From a virus, in UHGV virus genome UHGV-1943956: 17,807 bases of DNA, one strand, 5' to 3'. A program made the position numbers and the translations under genes. Within the stretch, counting starts at the first letter, position 1. Each line of letters begins with the position of its first letter. Shown piece after piece: positions 9,393 to 16,116 of this stretch. Below the pieces are notes generated by a model that did not search any database, was not told the DNA's origin, and worked only from the letters and a program-made list of their open reading frames with translations.

Positions 9393-9431
9393 AAGGTATC
9401 AAGGTGTGGCAAGTGATTTTTGATACTTTGG
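9393..9431. promoter_or_regulatory. Left operator/promoter region (OL/PL-like)
   Basis: Inverted pair AAGGTATCAA (9393-9402) and TTGATACTTTGG (9420-9431) shares the TTGATAC core with the sites near OR. It lies directly downstream of the repressor gene and upstream of the leftward operon. Candidate -35 and -10 hexamers on the minus strand overlap it. Confidence 0.45.
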
Positions 9432-9455: not shown

Positions 9456-10112
9456 TCAGAAAATATCCCACCTGGCATCAACCACAACACCTACTATTTC
9501 GCAATCATTGTCCATTTCTATGATTGGATATTGTGGATTAAGGGGCTTTAGAAACGCCTTTCCCATGTCAGAAATATATTTTTTGAATGTTGCTTCATTG
9601 GTAGATTTTTTTCTGGCGATGACGTAACACCCTGAAAAAACTTCTTTATCTGGGTTGACAAGGATCGACATTCCTTCAGGAAATGTTATTCCTACGGGCG
9701 AAGTCATTGAGTCTCCGTGCACTTCCAGCCAGAACCCCCTCTCACCAGCGTATTTTACAGAATGCCTCCAATTATCCTGATCATACATGTTGTAGTCATC
9801 ACCAGAAGTTGCGAATAATCCTGCCTGAACCCAGTTAATTACAGGGTAAGAGTGTGCTGTGTCTCTCTGTGGGCAGCTCTTAACATTATTTTCCCAATGC
9901 TTATCTTTTTCATCTCCGTTCTGAAGCCACTGCGGTGAACACCGCAGTGCAGCTGCAACTTTAAAAAGGGTGTCACCGTTGAAACTTTTTGTAAGGCCTT
10001 GCTCGGCTTTACTGATTGCAACTCTGGTGATCCCAGCTTTTTTAGCCAACGCATCTTGTGTTAACCCAGCTTTTTGCCGTGCGTTGATGAGACGTTCACC
10101 TAAAGACTTCAT
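9456..10112 (-). CDS. CI/LexA-type phage repressor (N-terminal HTH_XRE, C-terminal S24 peptidase)
   Basis: The ATG at 10112 has SD aggag 7 nt upstream. HTH segment LTQDALAKKAGITRVAISKAEQG. Ala-Gly candidate cleavage site in VQAGL. S24 catalytic motifs GDSM (Ser) and FKKY (Lys). Flanked on both sides by operator repeats. Confidence 0.85.
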   Translation of the reverse strand: MKSLGERLINARQKAGLTQDALAKKAGITRVAISKAEQGLTKSFNGDTLFKVAAALRCSPQWLQNGDEKDKHWENNVKSCPQRDTAHSYPVINWVQAGLFATSGDDYNMYDQDNWRHSVKYAGERGFWLEVHGDSMTSPVGITFPEGMSILVNPDKEVFSGCYVIARKKSTNEATFKKYISDMGKAFLKPLNPQYPIIEMDNDCEIVGVVVDARWDIF

Positions 10113-10223: not shown

Positions 10224-10451
10224 ATGACCCTTTATGAAATATTAAAAATTCAATTTAAAACCAATGCCGCTATTGGTCGCAGGTTCCCAAAGAAAGGAAG
10301 GCCTCGTGGCAGTCAAGGTGTTGGAAAGTGGAAAACGCGAGGTGTTCCGGAGGATGTTGCCATTCTTTGTCATCTGGATCCGAGCATTCCATATACACAC
10401 CCAAGTCTAGCGAATACAGAAGATGACAAGCCCACAGGAGACCAACAATGA
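10224..10451 (+). CDS. Hypothetical small basic protein at the cro position (75 aa)
   Basis: Its stop overlaps the start of the next gene (ATGA). It has a weak SD and no obvious HTH, and could instead be an untranslated leader. Confidence 0.3.
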   Translation: MTLYEILKIQFKTNAAIGRRFPKKGRPRGSQGVGKWKTRGVPEDVAILCHLDPSIPYTHPSLANTEDDKPTGDQQ

Positions 10452-11155
10452 ACACCGCAATTTTTAACGGCAAAGCATCCATGACCAGCGTTGAGATCGC
10501 AGAGCTGGTGGGAAGCCGACCAGATAGTGTTAAGAGAACTATTGAAACACTGGCTAAAAAGGGAATCATCCAATTTCCACAGACTGTGGAAATTGAGAAT
10601 AAACAATCACTTGGGCCTCGCCGATTTTCTAGCGCGTATGTATTCGAAGGTGAACGAGGTAAGCGCGACAGCATCATTGTCGTCGCACAGCTCTGTCCTG
10701 AATTCACATCTCGCCTGGTAGATCGCTGGCGCGAACTGGAAGAACAGATCCGTAAGCCAATGAGCGAAATCGAAATGGTTGCCGCGATGGCTCTTGAAGC
10801 CGTTCGCCAACAGAAACGGATCACTCAGGTGGAAGAAAAAGTCAGCCACGTTGCTGAAACAGTCGAGCAAATTAAAAAGGGCACTATTCGTGAGGGCTAT
10901 GCCGGATATCGCCAACTGAAAGCAAAAACCGGTTTGTCAGATGATAAATGCCGCAATCTGGTGAACGCCTATCAAATTCCTACAGACACCCATGAGTTCA
11001 TGACGCCGGACGGATTGTTGTCACGTCGCGCAATTGTTGCTGTGGAACCGTTTATGGCTGCTTTTTATCGGGTTATGGAGGAAGCAGAACCGCGAGGGAC
11101 TCGCTGGTATCACCCGAAAATGGGGTTATTTCAGGTTATTGGTTGGCAGCGGTGA
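10448..11155 (+). CDS. Putative phage regulatory protein with Rha-like N-terminal DNA-binding domain (235 aa)
   Basis: SD aggag 9 nt upstream. N-terminal MTSVEIAELVGSRPDSVKRTIETL matches the pattern of the Rha N-terminus seen in the next gene. Confidence 0.6.
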   Translation: MNTAIFNGKASMTSVEIAELVGSRPDSVKRTIETLAKKGIIQFPQTVEIENKQSLGPRRFSSAYVFEGERGKRDSIIVVAQLCPEFTSRLVDRWRELEEQIRKPMSEIEMVAAMALEAVRQQKRITQVEEKVSHVAETVEQIKKGTIREGYAGYRQLKAKTGLSDDKCRNLVNAYQIPTDTHEFMTPDGLLSRRAIVAVEPFMAAFYRVMEEAEPRGTRWYHPKMGLFQVIGWQR

Positions 11156-11343
11156 AAAAAAGCCGGGAGTAACCCGGCTCACTCAACATCAATAACGGGG
11201 AGCTGTTTCGCATAAAACGGCTCCGAAACATCCAAGAACAGTTCTAAAGATATCAGCAGCTATATGATCATTTCAAGACCAAATATTGATTCTGCAATTT
11301 CGGGACGTTACACTGTCTCCGCACCTTATAAAGCGGGTGCCGG

Positions 11344-11369
11344 GATTGGCGTCCTGAAATTCGCACATG
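11344..11369. repeat. Direct repeat copy 1 (GATTGGCGTCC...AAATTCGCACATG)
   Basis: GATTGGCGTCC at 11344-11354 and AAATTCGCACATG at 11357-11369. Both segments recur at 11509-11549. Confidence 0.6.
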
Positions 11370-11374
11370 CGCAT

Positions 11375-11397
11375 AACCGCGCTTCAGCGGTTTTTTT
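11375..11397 (+). terminator. Candidate intrinsic terminator inside the rightward operon
   Basis: AACCGC-gcttca-GCGGTT stem-loop followed by TTTTT, lying between the two direct-repeat copies. Confidence 0.4.
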
Positions 11398-11508
11398 GCG
11401 CACGTTTCCTCACATCCAAATTATGGTGGGGCGTGCAGGGGCATCGAAAGATGCGCCGGGGTCATGTGCGACCGGTTACGCCAACCCTGTACGTCTCACC
11501 ACCTCTGT

Positions 11509-11549
11509 GATTGGCGTCCCATGTGGTGAGTTTTCAAAATTCGCACATG
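11509..11549. repeat. Direct repeat copy 2 (with 15-nt insertion)
   Basis: GATTGGCGTCC at 11509-11519 and AAATTCGCACATG at 11537-11549, ending 12 nt before the Rha start codon. Confidence 0.6.
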
Positions 11550-11560
11550 AGGATGTCACT

Positions 11561-12112
11561 ATGGCAACCACCCCTACCCAAACTCACCCTAAAATTGATG
11601 TTATCCATGGGAAGGCTGTTACCTCTTCTTTGGCCGTTGCCGAATATTTCTGCAAGCAGCACAAAAACGTTATTCAAAAAATCCAGACGCTTGAGTGCTC
11701 TGTTGAATTCACTGAGCTGAATTTTCAGCCCAGTGATTACACCGATTGCACAGGCCGCAAACTACCTTGCTATCAAATCACCCGCGATGGCTTCGCGTTC
11801 CTTGCTATGGGCTTTACTGGCAAACGTGCAGCCCGGTTCAAAGAGGCATACATCAACGCCTTTAACCAGATGGAGAAGAATTTATCTGGTGCTGACGCGG
11901 TTGATATGTCAGCTGTCGCACGAAACGCCAGAGGCGTATACCTGCATTTGCGTGAAATCCATCAAATCTGGACAAGCCAGCTTTATCCAATGCTTAAGGC
12001 CGTTGAATCTCCGCTGGCTAGCAAACTGTACGACCGTGTTGGTGATGCTGTTTTTGGCGCTGCACTTGTTGATTCCAGGCTGAATGGTTCTGACAAGGAG
12101 GTTCGCCCATGA
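11561..12112 (+). CDS. Phage regulatory protein, Rha family
   Basis: The ATG at 11561 has SD gagga 8 nt upstream. Sequence VTSSLAVAEYFCKQHKNVIQKIQTL...GRKLPCYQITRDGFAFLAMGFTGKRAARFKEAYINAFNQMEK matches the Rha family signature. The 99 upstream in-frame codons of the track ORF are treated as non-coding. Confidence 0.8.
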   Translation: MATTPTQTHPKIDVIHGKAVTSSLAVAEYFCKQHKNVIQKIQTLECSVEFTELNFQPSDYTDCTGRKLPCYQITRDGFAFLAMGFTGKRAARFKEAYINAFNQMEKNLSGADAVDMSAVARNARGVYLHLREIHQIWTSQLYPMLKAVESPLASKLYDRVGDAVFGAALVDSRLNGSDKEVRP

Positions 12113-12303
12113 TTAGTTACGAAATCATCATCTCCACTACGGAATACAGAAACGATGTATCAGTTCGCACGGATGTATCTGTCTGGCACCGTCGCTATAA
12201 ATCCAGAAAAACAGCGGAACTGAAAGCGGCAGAGATGTGTGAAACCATCTCAATGAAAGGTAGCCCGGTTAAATACGTAACTACGGCGGAGGTGCGTCCA
12301 TGA
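12109..12303 (+). CDS. Hypothetical small protein (64 aa)
   Basis: ATGA overlap with the Rha stop. Part of a tightly coupled operon. Confidence 0.5.
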   Translation: MISYEIIISTTEYRNDVSVRTDVSVWHRRYKSRKTAELKAAEMCETISMKGSPVKYVTTAEVRP

Positions 12304-12524
12304 TCCGCCACATCGTTAATTCCCTGTATCACCGATACAACCGTTGCCCCCGTGTGGGGCAGTGGTTCGCCACCAGCAACGGTCACGTTCTGCGGGTTTG
12401 CCTAGTCAACGCTGAAAGCCAGAAAGTCGTGTGCGAACTACAGGGGCGTAGCTACACCATCAGTTACCCTCTGGCGGTATTTCTGTCTGGAAAAATGTTT
12501 AAGCGTCTGGGAGGTGTGGCGTGA
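12300..12524 (+). CDS. Hypothetical small protein (74 aa)
   Basis: Start overlaps the upstream stop. In-operon position. Confidence 0.5.
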   Translation: MIRHIVNSLYHRYNRCPRVGQWFATSNGHVLRVCLVNAESQKVVCELQGRSYTISYPLAVFLSGKMFKRLGGVA

Positions 12525-12820
12525 ACTGTTTTCAGTTTGTGTGCGGATGTGCTTTCGATAACCCGATTCAGCGCCTGATTATGTTGCGTGTTTTGATGTC
12601 GGGTTCTTCAGACGGTGAAGGCGAGAGAGTTATTGATCATCAGGTGCTTGCTGATTTCTGCTGTTGTTCTAAGCAAGCGATATTCAGGGAAACCCTGGCA
12701 CTGGAAAGAGCTGGTTATCTTCATATCCGAAAAATTGCAACGCTTACTATTGATGCAAAAGCCAGACTACAACCTGCGCGTGGCTACACAATTCTCATGC
12801 CGCGGAAGGAGGTTGTATGA
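12521..12820 (+). CDS. Hypothetical protein, possible DNA-binding (99 aa)
   Basis: GTG start preceded by ggagg. Its stop overlaps the start of the O-like gene. Confidence 0.55.
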   Translation: MNCFQFVCGCAFDNPIQRLIMLRVLMSGSSDGEGERVIDHQVLADFCCCSKQAIFRETLALERAGYLHIRKIATLTIDAKARLQPARGYTILMPRKEVV

Positions 12821-13809
12821 GCCGTTACGCCCCCACACCGGAAGTTATGGCTATTGGTCAAATTAATATTTCCGGCAATGTTACACCTGCGAACTGGTGG
12901 AAATATATTCGACTACCCAGTGGGCGTCCGGATGCGACGGCTATCGCTCTGCTTTCAGAGATCGTTTACTGGTACCGCCCGACAGAGGTCAGGGATGAGC
13001 ACACCGGAGCGTTGCTGGGATATCGCAAGCGTTTTCAGGGCGACAAACTGCAAAGAAGCTACCAGGCGTTTGCTGAGCAGTTTGGTTTCGGGAAAAGGGA
13101 AACCGCAGATGCGCTGAAGCGTCTGCGCGATGCAGGGTTTATTACTCTGGATTTACGCACGGTGGAAATGCTCGATGGGGTGAAATGCAGCAATATTTTG
13201 TTTGTCGGGATCAACCCACAGGCAATTGCGGCCATCACCACACCTTCTTCTGTTTCGCCAGAAAGTAACAGCAATAATGCAATCAGCGATACAGCTATTA
13301 CGTTAAAACGGAACACCCCCCGACGTCATAACGGAACAGGGGATACGCCGAATGTTGATACAAATACAGAGATTACTACAGAGATTACAACGGAGACTAA
13401 AAACACTATTGATGCGTCCGCTGACGCGTCTGCGCCAGCGCGTTCTGCCCGACAGGAATATTCACCGGAATTTGAACAGGCCTGGCAGGAATATCCCAAA
13501 CGTGCTGGTGGCAATTCCAAGTCAGCAGCCTTCAAAGCCTGGAAAGCCCGTATCAGGGAGGGAATAAAACCGGAGACCATGCTTGATGGCGTGAAGCGGT
13601 ATGCCGCTTGGGTACGTGCTACAGGAAATACCGGCACACAGTTCGTGAAGCAGGCTGCGACGTTCTTTGGACCCGATCGTCACTTCGAAGATTACTGGCA
13701 ACAGCCAGCCGCTCACGGAGGTGGGCGACAGCGACAGGTCGATGTCCTGGCTGGCCTGGGAGCCATGTCTGACAAATTCGGTAAATCCAGTAACAAATTG
13801 ACATTCTGA
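12817..13809 (+). CDS. Putative replication initiation protein (O-like replisome organiser)
   Basis: Strong SD ggaaggagg. Directly precedes the DnaC-like and DnaB-like genes. Has a low-complexity linker (TEITTEITTETK, DASADASA) and a conserved-looking C-terminal block EFEQAWQEYPKRAGGNSKSAAFKAWKARI. Function assigned from position and architecture. Confidence 0.65.
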   Translation: MSRYAPTPEVMAIGQINISGNVTPANWWKYIRLPSGRPDATAIALLSEIVYWYRPTEVRDEHTGALLGYRKRFQGDKLQRSYQAFAEQFGFGKRETADALKRLRDAGFITLDLRTVEMLDGVKCSNILFVGINPQAIAAITTPSSVSPESNSNNAISDTAITLKRNTPRRHNGTGDTPNVDTNTEITTEITTETKNTIDASADASAPARSARQEYSPEFEQAWQEYPKRAGGNSKSAAFKAWKARIREGIKPETMLDGVKRYAAWVRATGNTGTQFVKQAATFFGPDRHFEDYWQQPAAHGGGRQRQVDVLAGLGAMSDKFGKSSNKLTF

Positions 13810-13819
13810 GGTGACAGCG

Positions 13820-14719
13820 ATGATGACGATTGACCAACGTGAGAAACAAACAAGACTACAGGCGCGAATGGATGAGTTACGGGCAGAAATGGATGAGTTA
13901 CGGGCAGAGATTGCATTTGCTCAGAAGGGCGAAAAGCCATGGCCTTATCGTTCCTGCCTGATGCGTGAAGGTCGCGGATATTGCGAAAAACACGGTAAAT
14001 ATCGTACGCATATACTGGTGTGGATCGATCGTAATGGCGAGGACAGAGAAAAAATTTCATGCTGCCCTGACTGCTTGATCGCTGAGGCCAGTGATTTGAC
14101 CATGGAACTGTCGTCCCTCAAGGCGGAAGAACTGACTGATAACGCCGGAATTGCTCTGCGTTTTCGGGACTGCGAGTTTGATAATTATCTGGAGGTTAAT
14201 CCTGACGCAGCCAGAAATCTTGCGGCCTGTCGCCGCTATGCGGAGAACTGGCCAGATATGCTGGAGAACGGTACCAGTCTTGTTATGACCGGCAGTTGCG
14301 GTACCGGGAAAAATCATCTGGCGGTATCAATGGCAAAACACATCATCCGTAACTATCTGGCCAGTGTGGAGATCACCGACGTGATGCGCCTTACCCGGGC
14401 TGTGAAAAACTGCTGGCGGAATGACAGTGAAAAAACAGCGGATGACGTCATTGAGCATTATGCGTCACTGGATTTGCTGATTGTCGACGAAGTCGGCGTT
14501 CAGTTTGGCAGTGCGGCTGAAATGGCCATTTTGCAGGAAATTATCAATGCCCGGTATGAGGGTATTTTGCCAACTATCCTGATCAGCAACCTTTCACCGG
14601 AAGAATTGTGGGCGTTCATCAGTCCCCGGATTGCCGACAGAATCACCGATGGCGGGCGCAACTGGTTGTCGTTTAACTGGCCCAGCTACCGTTCTCGTAT
14701 CGGAGGTGTTGCCGCATGA
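13820..14719 (+). CDS. DnaC-like helicase loader (AAA+ ATPase) with N-terminal Cys-cluster extension
   Basis: Walker A GSCGTGKNHLA and Walker B LLIVDEVG. The ATG at 13820 is preceded by gaggtg. N-terminal cysteines (C..C...CC..C). Confidence 0.85.
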   Translation: MMTIDQREKQTRLQARMDELRAEMDELRAEIAFAQKGEKPWPYRSCLMREGRGYCEKHGKYRTHILVWIDRNGEDREKISCCPDCLIAEASDLTMELSSLKAEELTDNAGIALRFRDCEFDNYLEVNPDAARNLAACRRYAENWPDMLENGTSLVMTGSCGTGKNHLAVSMAKHIIRNYLASVEITDVMRLTRAVKNCWRNDSEKTADDVIEHYASLDLLIVDEVGVQFGSAAEMAILQEIINARYEGILPTILISNLSPEELWAFISPRIADRITDGGRNWLSFNWPSYRSRIGGVAA

Positions 14720-16116
14720 CCAGCCAGAACACCCCGGCATGGCGTAACGATGACCTGGAAGGCGCTGTCATCGGTGCGTTTTTTCTGCGTGGGGCCGATC
14801 CGGAAGTGATGGATATTCTGGCCACACTTCCGGCGGATGTATTTTTTGTGCGTCAGTACCGGGATATTTACGCGGGGATTTGCAGACAGGCTCGCATATC
14901 CGGCGTCATTGACCCCGTACTGCTGTGCAATGAGATGCCGGAACTTGCCCCGGTGATTACCGACACCGGACGCAAAACCTGGGTGAAGTCTTCACTGGAG
15001 CACTATGTCGCAGCGTTGCGGCGCAATGCCGCACTGCGCGATGCAGAAAAAACACTGACTGAAGCATTACAGAATTTACGTGATGCGTATACCTGTGAAG
15101 CAGCCGAGGATGCCCTGAAGGATGTGCAGAACATGATGGCCTCACTGTCGACCGGAAAGGGCGTCATTCAGCCGGTTCACATTGATGATGTCCTTCCGGA
15201 AGTGGTCGACCGTGTTGAATGCCGCAATCAGGGACTGGAGAAATCCAGGGCGCTGATGACCGGTATTGATGAACTGGACGCAAAAACGGGCGGTATGGAG
15301 CCCGGAGACCTGGTATTCATTGCCGCCCGTCCTTCGATGGGGAAAACCGAACTTGCGCTGGACATCATCGACAAGGTGACTGAGCAGGGGCATGGCGTGC
15401 TTCTGTTCACCATGGAGATGGCGAACATCCAGATTGGTGAACGTATGGTGTCTGCTGCCGGTGGAATGCCGGTATCCCGTCTTAAGTCTGTTGCCCGTTT
15501 TGAAGATGAAGACTGGGCGCGTTTCTCGCAGGGCGTGGGACGAATGACGGGGCGTAATATCTGGATGGTGGATCAGGCAAACCTGACCATTGATGAGATA
15601 TGTGCAACCACGAAGCACCACCGGATGAAACACCCGGAAACGGCGCTGGTGGTGGTCGATTACCTCGGTCTGATTAAAACCCGCAGCACGGGGCGTCACG
15701 ACCTTGCTGTGGGGGAAATCTCAAAGGGACTTAAAAGCCTGGCAAAATCCGGCGGTTTCCCGCTGATTGCTCTGAGCCAGCTCTCCCGAGGCGTGGAATC
15801 CAGACCCAATAAACGTCCCATGAACTCAGACCTGAAAAACTCCGGGGAAATAGAGGCTGATGCCGACATCATTCTGATGCTTTACAGGGATGAGGTGTAT
15901 AACCCGGATACACAGGCCAGAGGCATAGCAGAAATCAACATCACGAAACAGCGTAATGGCACACTCGGGACCATTTACCGGCGTTTTCATAACGGACATT
16001 TTCTGCCTGTGGACCAGGAGAGTGCCCGGGTTCTTTCCACACCCATGACGCCGGGCAATCCGCGCAGATACAGCAATAACCGCATGTCGGGCAGTAAAAC
16101 GGAGCGTTTATTTTGA
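14716..16116 (+). CDS. Replicative DNA helicase, DnaB family
   Basis: 466 aa. Walker A ARPSMGKTELALD, Walker B-like VVVDYLGLI, and DnaB-like C-terminal motifs. SD ggaggtg. Confidence 0.9.
   Translation: MTSQNTPAWRNDDLEGAVIGAFFLRGADPEVMDILATLPADVFFVRQYRDIYAGICRQARISGVIDPVLLCNEMPELAPVITDTGRKTWVKSSLEHYVAALRRNAALRDAEKTLTEALQNLRDAYTCEAAEDALKDVQNMMASLSTGKGVIQPVHIDDVLPEVVDRVECRNQGLEKSRALMTGIDELDAKTGGMEPGDLVFIAARPSMGKTELALDIIDKVTEQGHGVLLFTMEMANIQIGERMVSAAGGMPVSRLKSVARFEDEDWARFSQGVGRMTGRNIWMVDQANLTIDEICATTKHHRMKHPETALVVVDYLGLIKTRSTGRHDLAVGEISKGLKSLAKSGGFPLIALSQLSRGVESRPNKRPMNSDLKNSGEIEADADIILMLYRDEVYNPDTQARGIAEINITKQRNGTLGTIYRRFHNGHFLPVDQESARVLSTPMTPGNPRRYSNNRMSGSKTERLF

Follow-up and report, generated by a model that had tools for sequence, protein, structure and literature searches.

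A probable RNA immunity cassette of the P4, P1 and Gifsy-1 type within a nested Ash-Rha gene of a lambdoid prophage

In the stretch of 17,807 nucleotides of the UHGV virus genome UHGV-1943956 that was analysed here (the window), a gap of 405 bp (positions 11156-11560) precedes a gene of the Rha family, and the question that it raises is what such a gap contains and what it may do. The initial annotation considered it a non-coding spacer with direct repeats around a terminator. The features that it listed, namely a hairpin, repeats, a terminator and an open frame, are all present, with small corrections. However, the designation of non-coding spacer could not be kept, as the gap carries two predicted small regulatory RNA genes, one IsrK-like and one C4-like, with target boxes that match them, and also a conserved read-through frame similar to Eta of P4 (Phage_ASH), which is open in 36 of 36 unique relatives. 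We consider it highly probable (about 0.85) that the gap is an RNA immunity/regulation cassette of the type found in P4, P1 and Gifsy-1, placed within the 5' part of a nested Ash-Rha gene. Three of its parts were absent from the initial annotation: a structured element of 88 nt (11419-11506), the complements of the repeated boxes (11462-11471 and 11478-11487) and a promoter of sigma-70 type (11286-11314). Genes for tRNA and tmRNA were also searched for in the window and none was found.

The first RNA, a small RNA of IsrK / P4 seqA type, occupies positions 11321-11397 of the plus strand. The Rfam model isrK (RF01394) matches it over the full model length (1-77 of 77) with 62.3 bits, above the gathering score, which is 50 (E-value 1.7e-11), while the c4-a1b1 model (RF03163) reaches only a sub-threshold 23.9 bits on the window, with a gathering score of 46.7; it is therefore the isrK model that properly describes this upstream element. 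It is composed of hairpin 1 (11321-11340), hairpin 2 (11341-11356), whose loop exposes box a1, a single-stranded linker with box b1, and an intrinsic terminator (11375-11397, plus strand) detected by the terminator scan, whose stem AACCGC/GCGGTT (11375-11380 with 11387-11392) encloses the loop GCTTCA and is followed by a run of seven T (11391-11397). The same stem-loop had been described with a tail of five T: the terminator is real, but the tail has seven T and the whole is part of an sRNA of IsrK/seqA type that has a putative promoter of its own. A hairpin and a T-run are found at this position in every related type, with stem sequences that differ.

Concerning the promoter, a putative sigma-70 site, equivalent to PisrK and to PLE of P4, was located at 11286-11314 of the plus strand, with -35 TTGATT (11286-11291), a spacer of 17 nt and -10 TACACT (11309-11314); the predicted transcription start is G11321. 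It was read from the sequence and has 8 of 12 consensus matches, which places it below the cut-off of the promoter scan (9 of 12). The promoter block ATATTGATTC..GGGACGTTACACTG varies very little among 37 related loci, also where the DNA farther upstream is unrelated, and the spacing between the putative promoter and the RNA 5' end is equal to that of the Gifsy-1 isrK and P4 seqA promoters. The element has, in this way, both features that were looked for in an IsrK/seqA RNA, its own promoter, assigned by consensus match, and a 3' intrinsic terminator.

A linker of 21 nt separates the IsrK terminator from the second RNA (11419-11506, plus strand), an antisense RNA of the type named C4 in P1/P7, CI in P4 and STnc1160 in Gifsy-1. 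Here the match is to RF01695 (clan CL00128), again over the full length (1-87 of 87), with 75.1 bits, while the gathering score is 45 (E-value 2e-13). RF01394 and RF01695 also match seqA/cI of P4 and isrK/STnc1160 of Gifsy-1, and RF01695 matches c4 of P1 as well. The predicted fold (-46.5 kcal/mol) has a closing stem of 17 bp (11424-11440 with 11485-11501), hairpin 1 (11441-11454) and hairpin 2 (11455-11476). From the register with the annotated c4 of P1 and from the Rfam alignment, the mature RNA is predicted to extend from 11425 to 11503 (about 79 nt). Pairing is kept at 99.8% in the closing stem, where both partners have changed in 4 pairs, and at 100% in hairpin 1, where this holds for 4 of 5 pairs; hairpin 2 is invariant, and the slid controls reach 36-46%. 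Taken together, the internal helices of C4 and IsrK are 95.2% paired across the related loci, and none of 500 shuffles reached the observed score. In RefSeq neither the IsrK-like nor the C4-like RNA gene is annotated at this locus.

The direct repeats reported by the initial annotation are real and bipartite, being made of a box of 11 nt and a box of 13 nt, each in two identical copies. The first, GATTGGCGTCC, is found at 11344-11354 and 11509-11519 (100% identical) and the second, AAATTCGCACATG, at 11357-11369 and 11537-11549 (13 nt identical); the two boxes are 2 nt apart in the upstream copy and 17 nt apart in the downstream one. These repeats do not flank the terminator, as had been stated, but the C4 RNA gene. 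Labels follow P1 usage, where b boxes pair with the hairpin loop and sit at the RBS. Within C4, the loop of hairpin 2 (TCATGTGCGA, 11462-11471, called b') is complementary to b1 and b2, and the internal single strand with the first 3 nt of the stem (ACGCCAACCC, 11478-11487, called a') is complementary to a1 and a2; all boxes and complements are read on the plus strand. For box a1 (11344-11354), positions 11342-11344 and 11346-11352 pair with a' in a duplex of -16.6 kcal/mol, and for box b1 (11357-11369), positions 11361-11369 pair with b' (-14.4 kcal/mol). Downstream, a2 (11509-11519) is the target of a' (-10.3 kcal/mol) and b2 (AAATTCGCACATGA, 11537-11550) that of b', with 10 nt at 100% complementarity (-16.6 kcal/mol). 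The pairing region of b2 (11541-11550) overlaps the first two bases of the Shine-Dalgarno sequence GAGGA (11549-11553), with the ATG at 11561, and the downstream box is thus on the RBS of Rha. In Gifsy-1 the pairs G28-C162 and G31-C159, homologous to the a' pairing, have been confirmed by compensatory mutation (PMC4825925). It had been proposed to look for the 13-mer elsewhere in the element; the 17.8-kb window holds no further copy of it, nor of the 11-mer.

The gene that follows is the short Rha gene (11561-12112, plus strand, 183 aa), which matches Pfam Phage_pRha (9.7e-33) and TIGR02681 and starts at the ATG 11561 behind the SD GAGGA. As previously noted, the second repeat adjoins this start, although the spacing is 11 nt and not 12. 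The N-terminus of Rha, MATTPTQTHP, is homologous to that of P4 Kil, MATTLTPSHP, and by analogy short Rha would be the regulated gene, equivalent to kil of P4, anrP of Gifsy-1 and icd/ant of P1. Its stop codon overlaps the next start (ATGA), and the chain of 4-nt overlaps runs on to the replication genes. In front of the gene, a local hairpin is predicted (11512-11558, plus strand, -24.3 kcal/mol, z -4.9), in which a2 and its flank pair with b2 and the SD, and the 3' half of box a2 doubles as the 5' arm of this structure. The hairpin recurs in the fold of the long transcript, and an equivalent one (-20 to -24 kcal/mol) was found in 14 of 14 distinct downstream types, whose sequences differ. According to this prediction the SD of short Rha is closed even without C4.

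Rha can also be read as the end of a longer gene. The initial annotation had observed that its frame stays open for 99 codons upstream, and indeed the frame is open from 11216 and its first ATG, at 11264, adds 99 codons, giving a nested ORF of 282 aa (11264-12112, plus strand), the equivalent of P4 eta. This ORF begins ahead of the internal promoter and, staying in the Rha frame, runs across IsrK, C4 and the boxes. It matches Pfam Phage_ASH (PF10554) at residues 16-110, with 53.8 bits against a cut-off of 26, and Phage_pRha at residues 120-205; Eta of P4 gives 82.2 bits with Phage_ASH (4.5e-23). The class of P4 eta/kil-type nested genes was taken here as a Phage_ASH (PF10554) match on a Bro-network gene, and the nested layout of a long ORF and a shorter gene is common to P4, Stx1_14040, P88 and Shae_phiSM. 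A further in-frame ATG, at 11423 (229 aa), falls within the 5' strand of the C4 stem and corresponds to the first AUG of Gifsy-1 orf45. In many relatives a strong SD (GGAGG) precedes the start of the long ORF, which overlaps the upstream gene by ATGA, or else the ORF is fused in frame to that gene. In the window no SD is recognisable before the ATG 11264, and this start lies 108 nt past the stop of the upstream gene, to which it is not coupled; an Eta-like bypass may therefore be weak here.

Since the RNAs and boxes occur together with an open but unconserved frame and with a Phage_ASH match as in P4 Eta, the locus is a homologue, in a lambdoid prophage, of the P4 immunity region (seqA-CI-seqC in nested eta/kil), of P1 immI and of isrK-orf45-anrP of Gifsy-1. 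From homology and covariation, on which each step depends, it is possible to propose how such a cassette might work at this locus. In a lysogen the internal promoter would be constitutive and, by homology, most transcripts would end at the IsrK terminator, while read-through transcripts would remain untranslated and be processed to the stable C4 RNA of about 79 nt, with an RNase P cut at 11424/11425 that would also destroy the in-frame AUG 11423. C4 would then pair with a2/b2, and with a1/b1 on nascent transcripts, and keep the Rha start shut; through loss of translation, Rho polarity and the ORFs coupled by 4 nt, these transcripts would fail to express Rha and the downstream replication genes. 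Because IsrK carries a copy of the targets, free IsrK could compete for C4 and so act as an activator. Upon derepression of the early rightward promoter, ribosomes from 11264 would translate through IsrK, C4 and the boxes and, since they would prevent structures and pairings, expression would become insensitive to RNA immunity, as with P4 eta. A frame held open while its peptide evolves freely would fit such a bypass. The module is found at the entrance of a run of genes overlapping by 4 nt (12109-16116) that leads into the replication genes; for this reason the earlier suggestion that the region controls entry into these genes is plausible as a gating role. The outcome of pairing differs among the studied systems: C4 blocks translation in P1 (PMC8198154, PMC12197685), premature termination is the outcome in P4 (eta/kil/CI/seqA, as reviewed in PMC10111431), and in Gifsy-1 IsrK activates through orf45 coupling, with Hfq binding and action in trans on the read-through transcript, both known from Gifsy-1 only (PMC4825925).

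The last case offers another way to see the locus, namely as a Gifsy-1-like activating switch for prophage induction more than a device of immunity, where IsrK would open a silent read-through mRNA and the AUG 11423 would give an extended Rha, an antirepressor-like inducer. Both isrK and C4 are homologous to those of Gifsy-1, including the AUG at the same site in the 5' strand of C4; activation has been demonstrated experimentally in Gifsy-1 (PMC4825925), and the SD of short Rha, being closed by a hairpin, suggests that upstream translation may be required. However, the window has a continuous frame of Eta type and a P4-like start of kil type instead of the orf45 stop/start overlap, and its position in the early right operon before the replication genes resembles P4. 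In addition the downstream protein is unrelated to AnrP: we found no similarity between Rha and this ORF6N protein. We regard the activating switch as possible but rather unlikely, and it should be noted that it overlaps the P4-type cassette rather than excluding it.

It could also be argued that the region is simply coding, being the N-terminal 'Ash' domain of a Rha-family protein of 282 aa, and that repeats and hairpins are incidental. The 282-aa form is annotated in RefSeq as a 'Rha family' CDS, the long form is annotated on at least 1000 contigs, and the ORF matches several PHROG families in addition to Pfam Phage_ASH. The initial annotation had itself named translation of the upstream codons as part of Rha as something that would speak against a spacer, and the RefSeq CDS includes these codons. 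Moreover the frame is open in all relatives: in the Rha phase there are 0 stops in 36 of 36 unique cassettes, compared with averages of 2.4 and 5.3 in the two remaining frames, and the length variants of the cassette are all equal modulo 3, which means that indels preserve the frame. A frame so conserved, with a peptide that matches Phage_ASH, is neither chance nor a decayed duplication, the two explanations offered earlier. On the other hand, pN/pS in the cassette is 0.88, with differences evenly spread over the three codon positions (0.32/0.33/0.35), whereas the adjoining Rha has a clear coding signature (0.29, with 57% of the differences at third positions), and the substitutions of the cassette are compensatory at the RNA level and alter the peptide freely. 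A protein domain leaves the covariation of three sites unexplained, and it does not agree with two Rfam matches above the gathering score nor with a conserved promoter and an intrinsic terminator inside the ORF. The frame is kept open across the cassette without selection on amino acids, and that the region serves only as a protein domain seems to us very improbable.

A similarly low confidence is given to the non-coding spacer in its original form, in which a protein would act at the terminator, or bind an array of sites, and so control entry into the replication genes. Part of that proposal holds, as the repeats are indeed sites of binding, the terminator between the repeated boxes is real, and the position is ahead of the coupled operon leading to the replication genes. 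In 37 related prophage loci the boxes occur in at least 7 b-types and 5 a-types, the two kinds reassort independently, and all three sites co-vary, with 0 of 500 shuffles reaching the score. For a1 with a', 98.5% of cells are paired and 6 of 10 pairs are changed on both sides; the values are 98.3% and 7 of 9 for b1 with b', and 97.6% and 7 of 10 for b2 with b'. When a1-a' and b1-b' are combined, 98.4% of positions are paired and both partners have changed in 13 pairs, and for b'-b2 and a'-a2 combined 90.4% are paired with 11 such pairs (score 0.68, against 0.21 for shuffles), while slid controls are all paired at 37-50%. Cognate duplexes of box and loop range from -10 to -19 kcal/mol across types, compared with -3 to -10 kcal/mol for non-cognate ones; these energies and the covariation rule out that the repeats arose by chance. 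The RNA structure and covariation analysis that the initial annotation had recommended thus supports the pairing. Each box has a perfectly placed complement in the RNA between the boxes, and box and complement change together across types, which is the mark of RNA-RNA pairing and not of protein-DNA binding; the boxes are pairing targets rather than a protein-binding array. Also, the boxes are present nowhere else in the window, and no CI-operator-like motif is found near 11286-11314; the motif TTGATACTTTG occurs in the window only at 9420, 10159 and 10198, which rules out a CI-operator array beside the cassette.

Finally, a functionless, decayed tandem duplication of the Rha 5' end can practically be discarded. 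In its favour, the bipartite repeat is present twice, with its second copy at the true start, and the open frame shares the phase of Rha. Against it, the 99 upstream codons translate to Phage_ASH only, without similarity to Rha, the repeats are limited to 11 + 13 nt with structured RNA between them, and P4, P1, Gifsy-1, P88-like and Stx phages have kept the arrangement, with covariation.

One of the features listed initially belongs elsewhere. The hairpin at 11161-11180 (GCCGGG-AGTAA-CCCGGC) is real, but it is a terminator of the minus strand, unrelated to the cassette (11180-11160 followed by TTTTTTT), and it is read as leftward because the A-run is on the plus strand and the run of seven T on the minus strand. 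The terminator scan reports it at 11154-11180 of the minus strand, as GAGCCGGG-TTACT-CCCGGCTT plus T7. Together with a promoter-like site at 11276-11247 of the minus strand it could define a leftward RNA of about 86 nt. This site has a TG extension, and the predicted fold has -30.4 kcal/mol (z -2.7). No Rfam family matched the minus-strand element (11154-11276), and its 9 full-length phage matches are all at least 99% identical, with too little variation for covariation.

As to the diffusion of the cassette, a match to the region is carried by 1170 of 5426 complete E. coli genomes. Lysogens of this prophage include E. coli CE10, 100% identical to the window over 11156-11600, and ECOR13 with PhiR49_2. 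The P4-type logic of RNA immunity, made of an internal constitutive promoter, a processed antisense RNA, decoy/target boxes and a bypass by upstream translation, would then be present also inside the early right operon of lambda-like prophages, directly before the replication genes. For annotation it matters that a segment which here is conserved as RNA has entered protein families, namely Pfam Phage_ASH and several PHROGs. The diversity of the boxes and the tandem orthogonal cassettes of relatives suggest a programmable specificity code, which might be used to predict cross-immunity among prophages. It is tempting, but doubtful, to join these observations in a picture where a second, RNA-coded layer of immunity gates the replication module, the boxes are a combinatorial address and Ash is a translated shadow of the RNA. 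The at least 7 b-types and 5 a-types would reassort freely, co-resident or tandem cassettes would be kept orthogonal, and the ORF would be open only so that ribosomes from the upstream promoter can erase RNA immunity. If this were true, resident prophages would block or permit each other's Rha/Ant and replication genes by shared box types, and an RNA cross-immunity network would exist among E. coli prophages.

Among the known systems, the P4 immunity region (PLE-seqA-cI with seqB-seqC in eta/kil) shares with the window the same two Rfam models in the same order, an internal promoter just upstream of seqA/IsrK and a three-way complementarity of boxes. Eta (Phage_ASH), like the long ORF of the window, starts before the promoter and crosses the RNAs in the frame of the nested gene, and seqC, SD, start and the first ~10 codons of P4 are homologous to b2, RBS and Rha start of the window (..CACAGGAGGCTGCCATCATGGCTACAACC). 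Both cassettes are ahead of replication genes. However, the window belongs to a lambdoid prophage whose CI repressor is a protein, and its cassette lies inside the early right operon; its nested gene has a Rha domain, which kil does not have, the linker between terminator and C4 is 107 nt in P4 instead of 21 nt, and the start of the long ORF is coupled to the upstream gene in P4 and not in the window. The box sequences also differ, and the a-type of P4, CGTGAGAA, occurs in relatives such as L023.

The isrK-orf45(STnc1160)-anrP locus of Gifsy-1 (Hershko-Shalev et al. 2016, PMC4825925) has an IsrK with a like promoter placement and a terminator, and a C4-like processed RNA whose a' sequence (ACGCCAACCC) and a boxes (GATTGGCG) are as in the window; the AUG occupies an identical position in the 5' strand of C4, and b2 abuts the SD of the downstream gene. 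It differs because orf45 is a separate ORF of 45 codons ending on the anrP start (AUGA), with no continuous ORF of Eta type, because AnrP is an ORF6N-domain protein without similarity to Rha of the window, and because the locus is downstream of Q and not before replication genes.

Concerning P1/P7 immI (a1 b1-c4-a2 b2-icd-ant1/2), the order of elements and the C4 family are as in the window, and the P1 record annotates the order a1-b1-c4-a2-b2 with b2 at the RBS. In P1/P7, too, the first gene downstream has b2 at its RBS, and the boxes that determine specificity differ between related phages. P1 has, however, no terminated sRNA of IsrK type, and its upstream part matches RF03163 c4-a1b1, which the window matches weakly (23.9 vs 46.7 bits). 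In P1 the C1 operator overlaps one promoter, while nothing operator-like is near 11286-11314 in the window, and the regulated protein is Ant in P1 and Rha in the window. P1 has icd between b2 and ant, whereas Rha of the window follows b2 directly; the window would work like immI, though strictly speaking it is no immI operon.

The sar RNA of P22 (with ant) and the OOP RNA of lambda (with cII) are likewise small phage RNAs that limit a regulator in the immunity/early region. They are cis-antisense RNAs from the opposite strand, while C4 of the window comes from the same strand and would act on short dispersed boxes; lambda OOP is relevant here only to the minus-strand terminator (11154-11180). 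The type of mechanism is already known from these comparisons, and the locus described here widens its reach and leaves the mechanism unchanged.

The gap at 11156-11560 separates a gene for a 235-aa DNA-binding protein (10448-11155) from the short Rha gene. The upstream protein gives a weak Phage_pRha/HTH match and is placed in PHROG 63 'anti-repressor Ant', near-identical records labelling its gene Roi or 'Rha family'; a clear Rha domain marks the downstream gene, whose canonical start, ATG 11561, is preceded by the Shine-Dalgarno sequence GAGGA (11549-11553). All the sequence features that the initial annotation listed in this gap (a hairpin, direct repeats and a stem-loop) were found when checked in the sequence, although two of them needed correction. 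The repeats are bipartite, with an 11-mer and a 13-mer each 100% identical between copies. The terminator-like stem-loop is present, but its tail, described as T5, counts seven T; the hairpin at 11161-11180 also exists but, because its T-run lies on the minus strand, it is a leftward terminator.

What the annotation overlooked is the C4 RNA. An Rfam scan of the gap returned two full-length matches above the curated thresholds, isrK (RF01394) at 11321-11397 (62.3 bits, gathering score 50) and the C4 antisense RNA (RF01695) at 11419-11506 (75.1 bits, gathering score 45). The terminator already noticed closes the IsrK-like RNA at its 3' end; of the repeat copies, the first falls within IsrK and the second in the stretch from C4 to the Rha start. 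The boxes were named as in the P1 record NC_005856: a1 (11344-11354), b1 (11357-11369), a2 (11509-11519) and b2 (11537-11550). Exposed segments of C4 are reverse-complementary to both types of box: b', in the loop of hairpin 2 (11462-11471, TCATGTGCGA), pairs with AAATTCGCACATG(A), and a', an internal single strand (11478-11487, ACGCCAACCC), pairs with GATTGGCGT. Directly 5' of IsrK stands a promoter-like TTGATT-17-TACACT (11286-11314); with 8/12 consensus matches it falls just under the 9/12 cut-off of our promoter scan and is therefore absent from its output.

The RNA structure and covariation analysis that the initial annotation had proposed was run on 80 loci from IMG/VR encoding relatives of the Rha protein, and the alignment comprised 37 distinct upstream regions. 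Almost no variation is seen in the promoter block, the 5' hairpin of IsrK or the C4 scaffold; the boxes are variable (at least seven b-types and at least five a-types), and the change of each type is echoed at all three sites, in the first box, in the C4 segment and in the second box. Mean duplex energies of cognate and non-cognate combinations were -12.5 and -3.2 kcal/mol for b'-b1, -15.7 and -5.5 for b'-b2, -17.0 and -10.4 for a'-a1, and -10.5 and -5.4 for a'-a2. In the alignment pair counts, 95.2% of cells are paired in the internal helices, 90.4% in b'-b2 plus a'-a2 (11 pairs changed on both sides; score 0.68 versus 0.21 shuffled) and 98.4% in a1-a' plus b1-b' (13 pairs changed on both sides; 0.69 versus 0.19), while slid controls reach only 36-50%. 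For each of the three structure sets the observed covariation score beat 500 of 500 shuffles. Moreover, a and b types reassort independently, as in loci L076 and L063. This comparison provides strong evolutionary evidence that the boxes are targets of RNA-RNA pairing by the RNA that lies between them. The earlier interpretation stands for the binding sites, the terminator and a gate in front of the replication genes, but not for the protein-binding array, since covariation with C4 identifies the sites as RNA targets.

Pairing in the same alignment is also systematically asymmetric. The C4 loop is perfectly complementary to b2 (11541-11550 in the window), whereas with b1 (11361-11369) it forms G-U wobbles in several types (mean -12.5 against -15.7 kcal/mol), and a' pairs better with a1 than with a2 (-17.0 against -10.5 kcal/mol), which suggests graded affinities for decoy and target sites.

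Downstream of C4, a hairpin is predicted at 11512-11558 (-24.3 kcal/mol, z -4.9), in which the Shine-Dalgarno sequence is paired with the 3' half of a2 and b2 lies in the 3' arm; an equivalent hairpin is predicted in 14/14 distinct downstream types, despite differing sequences. The short-Rha start is therefore predicted to be closed by default, and the C4 target overlaps it.

The gap is not purely non-coding, as had been assumed, since it carries an open frame in phase with Rha. In 44/44 unique loci this frame runs without a stop through at least 315 nt before the Rha ATG, while the other two close within 9-51 nt in most of them. Chance, proposed earlier for the 99 open codons, does not account for this: 36 unique cassettes contain no stop in the Rha phase (the other two frames average 2.4 and 5.3), and a given frame stays open in 2.3% of composition-matched shuffles of the window cassette. 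The three length classes, measured from a fixed anchor to the ATG (236, 239 and 242 nt), are equal modulo 3, and one lineage carries compensating -1/-2 indels. The peptide, freely rewritten by compensatory changes in the C4 hairpin, is not conserved (pN/pS 0.88; differences by codon position 0.32/0.33/0.35), in contrast to the adjoining Rha domain (0.29; 0.23/0.20/0.57). Selection therefore maintains the open frame and not the encoded peptide. In many relatives the ATG of the frame lies 16 nt upstream of the -35 box, with a strong Shine-Dalgarno sequence and an ATGA overlap with the preceding gene, and in others the frame is fused to that gene over 268-1066 nt; the homologous ATG 11264 of the window has no Shine-Dalgarno sequence and follows the upstream stop by 108 nt. 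The translated segment, like the P4 Eta ORF, matches Pfam Phage_ASH.

Phage_ASH (PF10554) and several PHROGs labelled transcriptional regulator or repressor (821, 995, 3960 and 6928) cover the translated IsrK and C4 region (11264-11560). Since close relatives display RNA covariation but no amino-acid-level selection here, these profile segments may largely reflect RNA conservation. In a deletion variant (L018:1214-1503) the microhomology ATGACGC links the 3' part of the roi-like gene directly to the IsrK terminator, so that the promoter and the bulk of IsrK are lost; the frame running through C4 to Rha remains open over 759 nt, in this case as a fusion with the upstream gene. An in-frame AUG (11423-11425), counterpart of the first Gifsy-1 orf45 start, straddles the predicted RNase P site of C4 (11424/11425, in register with P1 c4), and therefore C4 maturation and translation would be mutually exclusive on each transcript.

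The most likely mechanism, whose steps rest on homology plus covariation, would be as follows. In the lysogen the CI repressor (9456-10112, minus strand) would shut the early right promoter, leaving the internal promoter active. Its transcripts would mostly end as IsrK; those reading through, untranslated because they start inside the ORF, would fold and be processed to C4, which would pair with a2/b2, and also with a1/b1 on nascent RNA, keeping the Rha start closed. Because 4-nt overlaps link all the ORFs after Rha as far as the replication genes (initiator-like, 12817-13809; DnaC-like, 13811-14719; DnaB-like, 14716-16116), the replication module would not be expressed from these transcripts. 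IsrK, bearing a copy of the targets, could compete for C4, in line with the activation that it exerts in Gifsy-1. Once repression is lifted, ribosomes arriving from upstream would translate across the cassette, overriding the RNA control; this is the least certain step for this phage because the start at 11264 is weak.

Two further elements were observed. On the minus strand (11154-11276), a promoter-like TTGAAA-18-TATCTT with a TG extension (11276-11247) is followed about 60 nt downstream by a good intrinsic terminator (stem 11160-11180 plus T7); together they could define a leftward RNA of about 86 nt with two hairpins (-30.4 kcal/mol, z -2.7). This element has no Rfam family match. It would run against the early right transcript and lies immediately behind the gene at the cII/roi position, an arrangement reminiscent of lambda OOP; the Stx1_14040 locus, although homologous elsewhere, lacks the segment 11156-11283 as a module. 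An Rfam match to the sok antitoxin RNA (RF01794; 3473-3644, minus strand; 106.7 bits, gathering score 59) points to a putative hok/sok-type toxin-antitoxin locus in the left part of the window.

The element is widespread, since 1170 complete E. coli genomes out of 5426 contain a match; RefSeq carries no RNA annotation of it, and it is of a known kind and detectable by standard Rfam models. What may be new, for the most part outside the window, is the extent of the combinatorial box code, the tandem orthogonal cassettes, and the evidence for RNA-level rather than protein-level constraint on the Phage_ASH segment. Of 80 related prophage loci, 14 contain two or three IsrK-C4-(Rha-like gene) cassettes in tandem, spaced by 650-860 nt (L015, L023, L029, L032, L037, L041, L042, L044, L045, L048, L050, L057, L065 and L068), and in 13 of these 14 box specificity differs between co-resident cassettes, suggesting that they are orthogonal. 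The third cassette of L041 combines the IsrK and C4 of cassette 2 with a b2 box of a different type; gene conversion is the probable source of this mismatched chimera.

The same Rfam pair occurs in the same order in P4 (seqA, cI) and Gifsy-1 (isrK, STnc1160/orf45), and P1 has c4 with a1, b1, a2 and b2 annotated in its record. The P4 Eta ORF spans the P4 isrK and C4 matches as the long ORF of the window (11264-12112) does, and recognisable homology links the P4 seqC-SD-kil start with the b2-SD-Rha start. In Gifsy-1 IsrK, the pairs G28-C162 and G31-C159, proven by compensatory mutation (PMC4825925), fall exactly in the a1-a' helix defined from the window. According to a 2023 paper, the Rfam C4 and isrK profiles pick up relatives of CI and seqA inside genes of the Bro network, whose Pfam families include Phage_ASH and Phage_pRha (PMC10111431). 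In P4, eta contains a constitutive promoter; CI/seqA interactions terminate the transcript from it, which is processed to give CI, Kil is the truncated product, and full-length Eta is translated only from an upstream promoter, its translation preventing termination (PMC10111431). Also in the P2-like Xuanwuvirus phages P88 (L088) and Citrobacter phage Shae_phiSM (L089), the same cassette (~1215-1470) sits before a 'derepression protein' gene and a replication gene, a further case of the cassette ahead of a replication module. The shared Rfam pair, the homologous P4 start and the position of the Gifsy-1 pairs thus place the window in a known cassette family, as a lambdoid-prophage member with the continuous 'eta-type' architecture common to P4, Stx1_14040, P88 and Shae_phiSM, unlike the interrupted 'orf45-type' of Gifsy-1, phi296 and Stx2 phage 1717.
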